DNA of 56,868 bases from a virus (Duplodnaviria; Heunggongvirae; Uroviricota; Caudoviricetes). The notes beneath the pieces are model-generated. The model was not told the origin of the DNA. It worked only from the letters and a program-made list of their open reading frames with translations, and made no database searches. Of the stretch, positions 40,915 through 47,324 are shown one piece after another. The position numbers and the translations under genes are program-made. Position 1 is the first letter of the stretch. The number at the start of each line of letters is the position of its first letter. The stretch is from the IMG/VR virus record IMGVR_UViG_648276647_000006, positions 1 through 56,868 of that record; one strand, 5' to 3'.

Positions 40915-42645
<1,731 letters not shown>

Positions 42646-43920
42646 ACGGCAAACATTCCCAATTCACAGAGTCCGACCTAAACCACATGAAGCGGCTTAG
42701 GAATTACAGACTCTCCAAGGGCTAACACTGCCAGCCCGGCAGCTTTTATATTACGGGCCGCGTTAATATCACGATCATGCTCTGCGCCACATTCCGGGCA
42801 GTGCCATTTACGAATATTAAGAGGCATTTTTTGCATGGTGAAGCCGCAACTGCTGCAACGTTTGGAAGAAGGGAAATACTGGTCGATAGCGACAATGCTA
42901 CGTCCACCCCATTCTCCTTTGTACTGGAGTTGGCGTACAAGTTCGCTCCAGCCTGCGTCAGCTATTGCTTTAGACAGCTTCGGGTTACGGATCATGTTTT
43001 TCACTTTAAGGGATTCGACGCAAACAACTTGGTTTTCGTTAATCAGTTTGCGGGACAACTTATGCAGGTTATCCATCCGACAATCGACTATTCTCGCGTG
43101 GAGGCGGGCAACCTTTAAACGTGCTTTGGCGCGGTTCTTTGAGCCTTTTTGTTTCTTGCTCAATCTGCGCTGTAACACTGCTAATCGCTTCGCGTATTTA
43201 GCGTTGTGTCGAGGATTGCCAGTTTTGAAACCGGTATCGGTGACGAACAAATCTTTTAAACCAATATCAATGCCGACCGTGGAAACGGTGATCGGCAGTG
43301 ATACAGGCTCAAACTCGCAGAGACAGGATACAAAATATCGTCCGGCAGCATCCCTGGTGATAGTGACAGTGGATGGAGCAGACGGCAACGGACGGCTCCA
43401 GCGAACATCTAACGGCTCTTTGCTCTTTGCCATGTACAGCTTGCCGTCACGGTATTTAAATGCGCTGGCAGTTAGTTCTGCGGCCTGTTTATGCCGCTTG
43501 CTCTTAAAAACTGGGTATGCAGCACGCCCGGCGAAAAAGTTAGCAAAAGCCGTTTGTTGGTGGCGCAGAGACTGCTGGAGGGGGACGCAGGAAACGTCAT
43601 TCAGCCAAGCGAATTCTGGTTCTTTTTTCAGTGCCGTTAATTTGGCGCTGGCTTGTGCATAGCCGACCCTCTCATGGCGTGCGTAGTACGCATCGGTGCG
43701 CCAGCGAAGGAGGCTGTTATAGACAAAACGCACACACCCAAAAGTCCGGGCTAATAGCTCGGTTTGTTCGGGAGTTGGATAGAATCGATATTTATAGGCA
43801 CGCTTCATGTTCTATATAATACATTGAAACTAATGAGTATATAAATGAATACACGGACGAAAATGTTATCAAAGCCAATATACCAACAGACATTAGGTAA
43901 GGTAGCTGGAGGGCAATATA
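42646..43920 (-). mobile_element. IS200/IS605-family TnpB-only (IS1341-like) element, ends not resolved
   Basis: A single tnpB with no tnpA, wedged between two conserved head genes; extent taken as the whole intergenic interval. Confidence 0.5.
42678..43808 (-). CDS. tnpB: TnpB RNA-guided endonuclease (OrfB)
   Basis: ORF track 376 aa; RuvC-I VGIDIGLKDL, RuvC-II E in VVCVESLKV, zinc finger CSSCGF...CPECGAEHDRDINAARNI. Confidence 0.9.
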   Translation of the reverse strand: MKRAYKYRFYPTPEQTELLARTFGCVRFVYNSLLRWRTDAYYARHERVGYAQASAKLTALKKEPEFAWLNDVSCVPLQQSLRHQQTAFANFFAGRAAYPVFKSKRHKQAAELTASAFKYRDGKLYMAKSKEPLDVRWSRPLPSAPSTVTITRDAAGRYFVSCLCEFEPVSLPITVSTVGIDIGLKDLFVTDTGFKTGNPRHNAKYAKRLAVLQRRLSKKQKGSKNRAKARLKVARLHARIVDCRMDNLHKLSRKLINENQVVCVESLKVKNMIRNPKLSKAIADAGWSELVRQLQYKGEWGGRSIVAIDQYFPSSKRCSSCGFTMQKMPLNIRKWHCPECGAEHDRDINAARNIKAAGLAVLALGESVIPKPLHVV

Positions 43921-44940
43921 ATGACTGATGTTTTGAAAACGGTCACTGACCGCTTTTGTCTCTATAGCAATGCTCGAAAAGGTCGCCAGAACGGGCGACA
44001 GTATGTATTAAGCGCGGTAAAGACCATGCTTGAAAGCAAGGAAACTCAGGAAGGTTTACGCCTTGGTGAGCTTTTCGGCTATTACGGTCACGGTCGCCGA
44101 CAGCTGACCGGCAAACTGGAAGTACCAGAAACCAGCGTGATCATGGTGGAAGGTCGCCCGGTCGTAATCGACAATGTTCCAGCGTGCCGAACAGTGGCTA
44201 TATCTGTTGACGACAACGGCATCGTTACCCATACACAGGAAATTCTTAACACAGAGCCGGGTAAAATTGTCGCCGCGATGATCGAAAGCCGAGCTGGTGG
44301 CTGGAGCTGGGCCACTGGCGGGCGCGAGTCCGGGAAAATTGCTGTAACCACCAGCTTCCATGGTGTGGATTATGTGACAACGCCGAACTATATCAGTCTG
44401 GATCATCCTGCCAGCGCCGGAATGTTTGAAAGCGCGGATTCTAAATCTCTACTGGCAGAGTCCCTGGCGGCGCATGGGTACTCCGACGAGTCAGTGCAGG
44501 CAGTTATATCCCATTACGGCAAAATGGCTGAACTGGAAATGATGGTGGAGGCGACAGAGCGTACGGCAGAACTGGAAACCGCACTACTCGAAAGCCAGGG
44601 CCGCCACCTCGAAGCAATGGCCAAGATCGCAGATGCTGAAGCGCGAATCGCTTTGCTGGAGGAAACAGCGGGTATCCGCGACGATGTGCTGGCAGCAATG
44701 CAAGACGAACTGGATAACCTCCCGATTTTCGTCTCCGCCGCCCAAAAAGACGCATTCCGCCTCAAAGAACCTGGTGATGCAAAAATCGTTGCCACACTTT
44801 TCGAATCTCTGATCAAAGTTGGCGCACGCAACTTGCCTGTTACCAAGAAAATTAAGGAGGTTCCGCAAGCGGCTAACGTCCAGGCACCGCGTGAGACAAG
44901 CATCATCACGTTTAATAATTCAATCAATCCGTTTAAATAA
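43921..44940 (+). CDS. pro: head maturation protease/scaffold-like protein (pro position in P1)
   Basis: ORF track 339 aa; GGAGGG RBS; coiled-coil C-terminal half; assignment from synteny. Confidence 0.6.
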   Translation: MTDVLKTVTDRFCLYSNARKGRQNGRQYVLSAVKTMLESKETQEGLRLGELFGYYGHGRRQLTGKLEVPETSVIMVEGRPVVIDNVPACRTVAISVDDNGIVTHTQEILNTEPGKIVAAMIESRAGGWSWATGGRESGKIAVTTSFHGVDYVTTPNYISLDHPASAGMFESADSKSLLAESLAAHGYSDESVQAVISHYGKMAELEMMVEATERTAELETALLESQGRHLEAMAKIADAEARIALLEETAGIRDDVLAAMQDELDNLPIFVSAAQKDAFRLKEPGDAKIVATLFESLIKVGARNLPVTKKIKEVPQAANVQAPRETSIITFNNSINPFK

Positions 44941-44951
44941 CCATCAAAAAT

Positions 44952-44973
44952 AACCCCGGCGGCTGCCGGGGTT
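44952..44973. terminator. bidirectional hairpin terminator
   Basis: AACCCCGGC-GGCT-GCCGGGGTT between convergent pro and lysis genes. Confidence 0.6.
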
Positions 44974-44984
44974 CTCGTTAACTA

Positions 44985-45239
44985 TTATCGCCTTCGTCTG
45001 CGTGCCATATATTTTCGCACCGCGCGACGTGGGCAATCTGAAGCGGTTTCTTTCTGCTGCATCAATCTTGCAGCCATGCTCAAAAATGTCAGGCACAGCC
45101 GAAGCCCGGCATATAATAGCGGTTCCAGTGGCCACGTCTCATTGAGCACATATACCGCCATGAAAATCGAGTCGAAAACTATCGCCGCCAGCGATAACTT
45201 CATTGTCGAAAGTCGGCGGAGCTGCCGGAGTTTATTCAT
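44985..45239 (-). CDS. small membrane protein of the lysis region
   Basis: ORF track 84 aa; hydrophobic core; overlaps the lyz stop. Confidence 0.5.
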   Translation of the reverse strand: MNKLRQLRRLSTMKLSLAAIVFDSIFMAVYVLNETWPLEPLLYAGLRLCLTFLSMAARLMQQKETASDCPRRAVRKYMARRRRR

Positions 45240-46447: not shown

Positions 46448-46643
46448 ATGTGTAAAAAACGACTGAAAGAAAAGCGGTGGTCCAGACGCCGACAAAAGCA
46501 CGAACTCGCTAAAAAACGCCAAAGCTGGCAATGGCACGCGCTTTTCACGAAAAGAACACCCCGAGGCATTGCTTTCGCTGGTGGGAAAACATTCCTCCCC
46601 ACCTGAAGGCGCAATACATCAAATTTTAAGCAGAGAAAAGACT

Positions 46644-47324
46644 ATGAATAAAATGGCAACGAAAGAGCTTTTTAAGTTCCTTCCCAAATACAAAGCTCAC
46701 AAAATCGTTAGTGCATCGAAAATCAAAGATATCGAGATTATCTCATTGATTGATAATACCCCTGCTTGTGGCTATATCACATTAATGGACCCCCAAGGCG
46801 TAACGGTTCGTGTTGATGCAGCGTTTTTGCAAAAACACCGACCAGATACTGGCGGCTATCTGCTCGGTTATGAGGACGGTTATCTGTCCTATTCACCAGA
46901 AAAAACATTTGAAGAAGGCTTTAGTCGGACTAACGACTTCTTCGAAAATGAGGTATCGCTTAGCATTGAAGGTCACAATGGGGTGACATTCATTACAGCC
47001 AGGGACGTAACTATTTCTGCTGGCGGTATCGCTACGCTACAAGAAGAAATCGACCTTGAAGCAGCCGACTTTTCTGACGCGCTGATGTGGCTGAAGGATG
47101 GCAAGAAAGTTGCTCGACGCGGGTGGAACGGCGAAAACCAATTCTGCTGGCTGGTTCCTGAAGGACAGAACCCGGCACGAATGGAAGCCATTAAGGGATA
47201 TTTCCCCGGCGACCTCGTTCCGTATGGTGCTTATTTCGCCTTAAAAAATGCACAAGGTGTAGTTGTTCCGTGGGTTCCTTCTGTAGGCGACTTACTGGCA
47301 TGTGACTGGTTTGTAGTGGAGTGA
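46644..47324 (+). CDS. DUF2829 (Tad2-like fold) domain protein
   Basis: C-terminal ALMWLKDGKKVARRGWNG...VPWVPSVGDLLACDWFVV matches the DUF2829 hallmark; start taken at an internal Met of track ORF 46569..47324. Confidence 0.65.
   Translation: MNKMATKELFKFLPKYKAHKIVSASKIKDIEIISLIDNTPACGYITLMDPQGVTVRVDAAFLQKHRPDTGGYLLGYEDGYLSYSPEKTFEEGFSRTNDFFENEVSLSIEGHNGVTFITARDVTISAGGIATLQEEIDLEAADFSDALMWLKDGKKVARRGWNGENQFCWLVPEGQNPARMEAIKGYFPGDLVPYGAYFALKNAQGVVVPWVPSVGDLLACDWFVVE

Follow-up and report, generated by a model that had tools for sequence, protein, structure and literature searches.

A probably immobilized solo TnpB/omega-RNA element at the prt/pro junction of a P1-like phage-plasmid, with a predicted guide against the uninterrupted junction

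Why does a tnpB gene, unaccompanied by tnpA, lie antisense between two head genes of a phage, and what might it do there? The locus is part of a viral DNA of 56,868 nt (IMG/VR record IMGVR_UViG_648276647_000006, positions 1 to 56,868; hereafter the window), a P1-like phage-plasmid in which darB, prt, pro, lyz and ssb follow one another in P1 order. Our analysis leads us to propose, with a probability of roughly 0.7, that the locus is an immobilized solo TnpB/omega-RNA element belonging to the GipA/ISEc42-like group found in Enterobacterales, and that its guide is aimed at the uninterrupted P1 junction.

Alignment of the window with the phage P1 genome (NC_005856) delineated an insert of 1295 bp on the minus strand at positions 42626-43920, without a target duplication. 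The point of insertion is the 8-nt overlap between prt and pro of P1 (ATGACTGA). An initial annotation of this DNA had described an element inserted between two head genes and antisense between the genes in portal and protease position. Both statements were borne out by the precise insert and by the arrangement of tnpB (minus strand) between the portal gene prt (40924-42645, plus strand) and the head-processing gene pro (43921-44940, plus strand). The span given there, 42646-43920, was exact at its right boundary, whereas the left boundary lies at 42626; the distance between the stop codons of prt and tnpB measured 32 nt instead of 33 nt. Record comparison and alignment ruled against tnpB being native to P1, as the gene is absent from reference P1 and from 17 other P1-like phage records, which cover the flanks only and show an 8-nt overlap of prt with pro. 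The same insert occurs in record ON470615, where it is annotated as 'ISEc42'.

Position 43920 marks the left end (LE) of the element, and position 42626 its right end (RE). On the minus strand, the empty site of P1 reads ...CAGTCAT directly followed by TATCGTTTCCC, while in the occupied window the element, starting with TATATTGCCCTCC and ending with TTGTCAA, stands between these two sequences. A three-base ambiguity at the junction (TAT) was settled because 45 homologous elements all finish with ...GTCAA (tnpB strand) at their RE. The element lacks terminal inverted repeats as well as a target-site duplication and is inserted 3' of the tetranucleotide TCAT. This target-adjacent motif (TAM; 43921-43924, minus strand) lies immediately 5' of LE and is the reverse complement of ATGA, made up of the pro start codon and the base after it. 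In every type-A relative inspected, the conserved LE tip is preceded by TCAT, and the junctions were identical in 8/8 occupied P1-like copies examined. The comparison with P1, which the initial annotation had called for, thereby fixed the junctions to the base and defined the TAM. The bioA/ybhB element of E. coli Nissle (L004) served as an independent check of this boundary rule; its predicted empty site was found in 4466 E. coli genomes. An empty ybhB site perfectly matching the Nissle flank occurred in 0 complete E. coli genomes; L100 and 4466 other genomes all differ from this flank at guide position 3 (GAGCCC versus GAACCC).

The tnpB gene (42678-43808, minus strand) encodes an uninterrupted protein of 376 aa. 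Pfam searches identified HTH_OrfB_IS605 (PF12323, 1e-21), OrfB_IS605 (PF01385, 4e-25) and Cas12f1-like_TNB (PF07282, 1e-23), and the NCBIfam model guided_TnpB (NF040570) scored 358 bits against a cutoff of 100. Structures of ISDra2 TnpB (8BF8, 8EXA, 8H1J) matched residues 3-365 with E = 7e-77. In this alignment, D181, E265 and D347 correspond to the catalytic residues D191, E278 and D361 of ISDra2 TnpB, and both CxxC pairs of the zinc ribbon (C318/C321 and C337/C340) are retained. The protein families and the structural alignment thus agree with the intact 376-aa TnpB with RuvC and zinc-finger motifs that had been read from the sequence, and inactivating changes in the ORF, which the initial annotation had envisaged, were not found on alignment with ISDra2. 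A dead nuclease of the TldR type was also considered and rejected; the RuvC triad is intact, and so is the C-terminus, which shows no truncation. Compared with 11 relatives, tnpB yielded dN/dS values of 0.08-0.12 and is, by this measure, under purifying selection. Among the P1 copies of the element, 11 nonsynonymous and 11 synonymous substitutions were counted, a ratio that suggests somewhat relaxed constraint within this set.

We also determined whether a guide RNA could be assigned to the element. The terminal 230 nt of 35 elements were aligned, and in the consensus structure derived from them 96.5% of the cells were paired and 17 of 30 pairs displayed compensatory changes. This degree of pairing and covariation was reached by 0 of 500 shuffles, and slid controls were paired to at most 48%. 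A covariance model built from 34 relatives, with the window sequence excluded, gave exactly one match within the 56.9-kb window (42626-42750, minus strand; 126 bits, E = 4e-36), which terminates precisely at RE. The matching region consists of the last ~70 nt of tnpB and 52 nt downstream, including the RE hairpin. The window retains 29 of the 30 pairs of the family structure, and its terminal hairpin at RE carries two compensatory double changes relative to the family. As a scan of positions 41500-45000 against Rfam at E <= 1 matched no family, the RNA was defined by comparison with the relatives. According to these comparisons, a conserved and covarying omega-RNA-like structure ends exactly at RE. 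This outcome fits the suggestion of the initial annotation that a covariance-model search be directed at 42.6-42.85 kb of the minus strand, and also its view that RE and any omega-RNA scaffold must abut or overlap the 3' end of prt.

In characterized TnpB systems, the guide is the flank of the right end, for which the work of Karvelis 2021, Altae-Tran 2021 and Meers 2023 reportedly stands. By analogy with ISDra2 TnpB, the predicted guide is therefore the RE flank TATCGTTTCCCTCTTTAAAG (42606-42625, minus strand). Since RE is located 20 nt inside the present prt ORF, this guide would come from prt coding sequence, which agrees with the earlier expectation that it is read from the flanking phage head gene. 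The guide runs antisense to the final native codons of prt and to the native Shine-Dalgarno (SD) sequence of pro. TCAT and the 20-mer TATCGTTTCCCTCTTTAAAG are contiguous and intact in P1 and in the P1-like locus L088. The sole match to the guide in the window is the occupied junction itself, which is preceded by TCAA, not TCAT; this difference would be the expected self-protection of the occupied allele.

The left end of the element has fared differently from the right. LE (43809-43920, minus strand; 112 nt) has kept its conserved tip and lost its subterminal hairpin. Its DNA folds with -2.5 kcal/mol (z = +0.95), compared to -32.5 kcal/mol (z = -7.95) for the LE of the gipA element in Gifsy-1, and alignment with Klebsiella-type LEs showed that both hairpin arms are mutated and that 11 nt are deleted. 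The relatives possess matching subterminal hairpins at both ends in an IS608-like geometry, whereas in the window only the RE hairpin is present and the two hairpin sequences are no longer alike. A Y1 (HUH) TnpA was absent from the window both in a Pfam scan of 105 stop-to-stop frames of 100-300 aa and in a tblastn search with IS200C TnpA, in line with the earlier reading. Similarly, no Y1 transposase was located within 2.5 kb of any relative of at least 56% identity; a nearby one occurred only in distant relatives from Paenibacillus, Bacteroidaceae and archaea. As the LE hairpin has decayed and the variant is known from prt/pro only, this copy is most likely stranded at one site and no longer mobile.

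With regard to expression of tnpB, a promoter-like TTTATA-18-TATTAT (43845-43816, minus strand) is positioned directly upstream of the tnpB ATG, although the promoter scan returned 2 sites against 1.9 expected and is thus not above chance. In both the window and the relatives, the tnpB ATG is preceded at a distance of 7-8 nt by a -10-like hexamer (TATTAT, TAATAT or TATTTT). An SD sequence was absent before the ATG in the window (43809-43845, minus strand) and at the same position in the relatives. The hexamer at the ATG together with the missing SD suggests a leaderless or near-leaderless tnpB mRNA.

The insertion also alters the signals of its two neighbors. Prt has acquired a changed C-terminal tail because the prt reading frame runs into RE. 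The last six prt codons and the stop codon are supplied by the element (42625-42645, plus strand), so that ...NDND at the end of P1 Prt becomes ...NDIDNCPP in the window (573 aa compared to 569 aa), with the stop codon situated in the loop of the RE hairpin. The pro gene is unchanged, and the element now stands between it and both prt and the late promoter LPpro. An SD-like GGAGGG read from the LE tip (43908-43913, plus strand), 7 nt upstream of the pro ATG, stands in for the native GAGGG that was displaced by the insertion, and it may serve as the SD of pro. In Gifsy-type LEs the SD sits inside a strong hairpin and its use in translation is only presumed; in the P1 copy, the SD would be released by loss of the LE hairpin, which is a possible reason for the decay.

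Further features of this region concern transcription and annotation. Between 42300 and 44200, 10 terminator-like hairpins were counted compared to 2.3 expected, several of them on the plus strand inside the element. One of these hairpins in the window, at 42728-42742 and with CTTTTATATT after it, is complementary to a stem of the omega-RNA. The plus-strand terminator-like hairpins might lower read-through from LPpro into pro. A promoter-like TTTATA-18-TATAAT at 43791-43820 on the plus strand points toward pro. RefSeq NC_005856 (L001, 2127-3146) calls P1 pro a 'tail fiber protein', although a note in the same record refers to head processing; the label is repeated in other RefSeq P1-like records and is likely an automatic mis-annotation. 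Downstream of ssb, a plus-strand gene (46569-47324) encodes a 251-aa protein whose residues 167-250 form a Tad2-like (Thoeris anti-defence 2) domain (E = 3e-22).

Is the position in front of a start codon peculiar to the P1 copy? We collected 79 loci by protein, plus further ones, with relatives including L003, L004, L005, L008-L073, L187, L188 and L190. Among elements of the TCAT type, the CAT of the TAM coincided with the ATG of an opposite-strand ORF of at least 100 aa in 26 of 32 independent insertions, compared to a generous background of 25% (binomial P = 4e-11). The hosts of such start-codon insertions include, besides the Gifsy-1 gipA element, kdpC/kdpD, trbC, ybhB and Klebsiella and Pseudomonas phages. 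A displaced native SD was present in the RE flank in 19/29 cases versus 12% of background TCAT sites, and the LE tip provided a GGAG-like motif 7-8 nt from the ATG in 25 of the 32 TCAT-type relatives. ATGA is the commonest stop/start overlap, and in 8 of 31 reconstructed empty sites the canonical ATGA overlap was recovered, among them Z/U of Gifsy-1, the capsid genes of Klebsiella phage ZCKp20p and a site in Pseudomonas phage phita81A. For Gifsy-1 and ZCKp20p, the records annotate the TGA within the right tip (T-TGA-C) as the stop of the upstream gene. At 8-nt overlaps (prt/pro of P1 and kdpC/kdpD of E. coli), the upstream protein gains a short tail of the form ...D(N/C)(C/S)PP, which ends at the hairpin-loop stop; in KdpC the tail reads ...DCSPP.

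Sister TnpB subfamilies have other tetranucleotides at the left flank, TTAT (L016, L017, L023) or TTAC (L021, L024, L034, L050), and their left tips (CAATTTGCGCG...) are without an SD-like motif. The Halomonas and Zobellella elements use TCAT and likewise have a tip without such a motif.

We further surveyed how the element is distributed among P1-like genomes. Among 5426 complete E. coli genomes, the prt 3' end was present in 490 records; the element was present in 39 of these P1-like records (~8%), and 436 had an empty junction, which in 269 cases was 100% identical to P1 over 60 nt. IMG/VR contained 3 occupied and 86 empty contigs, 64 of the latter with a perfect target and 22 with a variant termed the GAGA allele. 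Given this prevalence, there is no sign of a sweep. The GAGA empty-site allele (L087, 1490-1510; IMG/VR contigs L165-L186) has ...AACGAGAATG in place of ...AACGATAATG. It creates a mismatch at guide position 2, changes a Prt residue from D to E and is linked to SNPs in pro at +48 and +55; GAGA could be an escape allele or a plain polymorphism. Carriers belong to E. coli, E. albertii and E. fergusonii, and their plasmids were typed as IncY or IncHI1B by MOB-suite. In PLSDB, the LE sequence of the window occurred only in 25 P1-like Escherichia plasmids, all of them 100% identical. Throughout PLSDB, the 5426 E. coli genomes, phage records and a collection of 5.8 billion proteins, the variant was confined to prt/pro of P1-like elements; in the protein collection, which yielded roughly 7200 homologs, identity was 98-100% for clusters on ~98-103-kb P1-like contigs and then dropped straight to 88%.

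Mean pairwise diversity among eight carriers was 5.3/kb for the element, compared to 13.7/kb for prt and 13.8/kb for pro, and the element was found on 7 flank haplotypes. Across 10 occupied and 76 empty sites, the flank haplotypes were highly mosaic. As recombination among P1-like phages is pervasive, the lower diversity and the occurrence on several backbones fail to separate homing from ordinary recombination. One of the copies, on the P1-like hybrid plasmid pL9-1 (L089, 2019-3661), has its tnpB truncated by an ISL3/lnu(G) resistance insertion. Phage-borne tnpB genes are common, with 231 phage records matching TnpB at E <= 1e-40, and public entries for dozens of P1-like plasmids already carry an automatic TnpB annotation of the present insertion. 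The searchable literature on ISEc42, on TnpB with TCAT or with start codons, on TnpB in P1-like elements and on phage 673R5 describes neither the insertion nor the start-codon placement. Phage vB_EcoM-673R5 reportedly stems from a study of phages located in the genomes of clinical isolates, and for this reason we do not take it as proof of virion-forming carriers.

From these data we favor the following scenario. A TnpB-only IS200/IS605 derivative would have inserted once, 3' of a minus-strand TCAT and directly before the pro ATG, in a P1-like phage-plasmid. TnpB and omega-RNA would be made from the element's own promoter and would cut the uninterrupted prt/pro junction (TCAT followed by TATCGTTTCCCTCTTT...) of co-resident or co-infecting P1-like genomes, while the occupied allele would be spared owing to TCAA instead of TCAT. 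Subsequent repair from the occupied copy could keep the element in place or spread it, in line with the canonical 'retention/homing' model for TnpB, although a Y1 TnpA could probably no longer excise or transpose this copy. The phage would tolerate the insert as the left tip gives pro a Shine-Dalgarno sequence and RE gives prt a nearby stop. In addition, we tentatively advance two linked proposals, which we consider possible but hold with much less confidence: that the TnpB family is adapted to gene junctions in operons, and that the P1 copy, its transposition signals lost, works as a module for RNA-guided homing or exclusion directed at element-free relatives. If the former is true, insertion into the tightly packed late operons of phages would be nearly scarless, and the placement, if confirmed, would explain how such elements persist in essential phage and host operons (kdp, tra, head and tail genes).

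How well does this scenario hold against other readings of the same data? The element may be an inert relic, a recent neutral hitch-hiker with TnpB and omega-RNA silent or inactive and an ORF that is intact only through its youth. The low prevalence, the decayed LE, the near 1:1 ratio of nonsynonymous to synonymous substitutions among the P1 copies, one of which has 7 amino-acid changes, and the copy truncated by ISL3/lnu(G) are all in accord with this reading. However, the ORF is intact in 8/8 complete occupied copies, the catalytic triad and zinc ribbon are preserved, and the RNA retains 29/30 pairs along with the two compensatory double changes in its RE hairpin. Moreover, the homologous gipA of Gifsy-1 was reportedly transcribed in all conditions tested (bioRxiv 10.1101/787010). 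We therefore regard a relic as unlikely. About equally doubtful in our judgment is that the same mechanism has been domesticated by the phage and is kept for destroying or converting rival P1-like genomes with an uninterrupted junction. Such exclusion, or marker exclusion, would resemble that of the free-standing homing endonucleases of T-even phages. In accord with this reading, the probably immobile copy keeps TnpB and its RNA structure, its predicted guide perfectly matches the majority allele of competitors, and the common GAGA variant (22 IMG/VR contigs and L087) has a mismatch at guide position 2, as would be expected of an escape allele. Carriers are not enriched, however, at about 8%, and since GAGA also alters a Prt residue and is linked to other SNPs in the flank, it may be ordinary polymorphism.

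The element could also still be a mobile insertion sequence that is transposed in trans by a host Y1 TnpA encoded elsewhere. Trans-mobilization must occur in the family, because the close relatives are all TnpB-only yet occupy more than 30 different sites, and a potential donor is at hand in the carrier plasmid p50579417_1, which has an IS200C with a Y1 tnpA just downstream of pro (L093, 5996-6454) that is missing from the window. For the P1 copy we nevertheless consider this highly improbable, as its LE is without a hairpin, the hairpin sequences of its two ends have lost their similarity, and it occupies one site across PLSDB, the E. coli genomes, phage records and the protein collection. 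Least credible of all, to the point of being nearly negligible, is a nuclease-dead, regulatory TnpB of the TldR type, or a 'virulence factor'. The latter is brought up by the annotation of the Gifsy-1 homolog (84.5% aa identity) as the Peyer's-patch virulence factor GipA, but the P1 copy has an intact RuvC triad and a full-length C-terminus, and its guide is predicted to aim at the element's own empty site rather than at a host promoter. We thus retain the immobilized solo element with a guide against the uninterrupted junction as the preferred reading. The locus in itself is an ordinary solo TnpB element, and its appeal lies in the natural set-up and in the placement of the family at operon junctions. 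It provides a clean natural test case in which TnpB and guide RNA were kept after the transposition signals had gone, and the abundance of the empty target in the same phage population, together with the tractable genetics of P1, allows a direct test of TnpB-only homing or exclusion.

Among known systems, ISDra2 TnpB of Deinococcus radiodurans shares with the P1 copy the full-length domain architecture, the catalytic D-E-D and the zinc ribbon, as well as a structured RNA over the 3' end of the gene that stops at RE, a guide from the flank and a TAM beside LE. The P1 copy differs from it by the TAM (TCAT versus TTGAT), the missing tnpA partner, the lost LE hairpin and the phage-plasmid host, and its activity is only predicted. 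A closer counterpart is the GipA element of the Salmonella prophage Gifsy-1 (84.5% aa and 79.7% nt identity), which is also a solo tnpB of 376 aa, lies antisense between late structural genes (Z/U), places its LE at the downstream ATG via TCAT and ends with ...GTCAA. In contrast to the P1 copy, the Gifsy-1 element keeps a perfect 21-bp LE hairpin and occupies an ATGA overlap of 4 nt, with the stop supplied by the right tip itself. Chromosomal E. coli elements labeled ISEc42-like fall into the same group as the Gifsy-1 GipA element, whereas the P1 copy forms a separate lineage with at most 88% aa identity to anything outside P1-like elements. ISfinder usually assigns a common name at about 95% aa or 90% nt identity and above; as the nearest non-P1 relatives do not exceed 88% identity in aa and reach about 81-86% in nt, the 'ISEc42' label in ON470615 probably denotes the closest insertion sequence and not identity. 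Like IS1341-type elements, the TnpB-only members of IS200/IS605, the P1 copy has no tnpA, inverted repeats or target duplication and is inserted 3' of a fixed tetranucleotide, but only one of the two subterminal hairpins is left and a single site is occupied. Finally, the free-standing homing endonuclease genes of T-even phages, such as SegF, resemble the locus in that a nuclease gene lies between conserved structural genes and the predicted target is the element-free allele; recognition would be RNA-guided in the P1 copy, where homing and marker exclusion are conjectural, in contrast to the protein-based recognition of the T-even enzymes.
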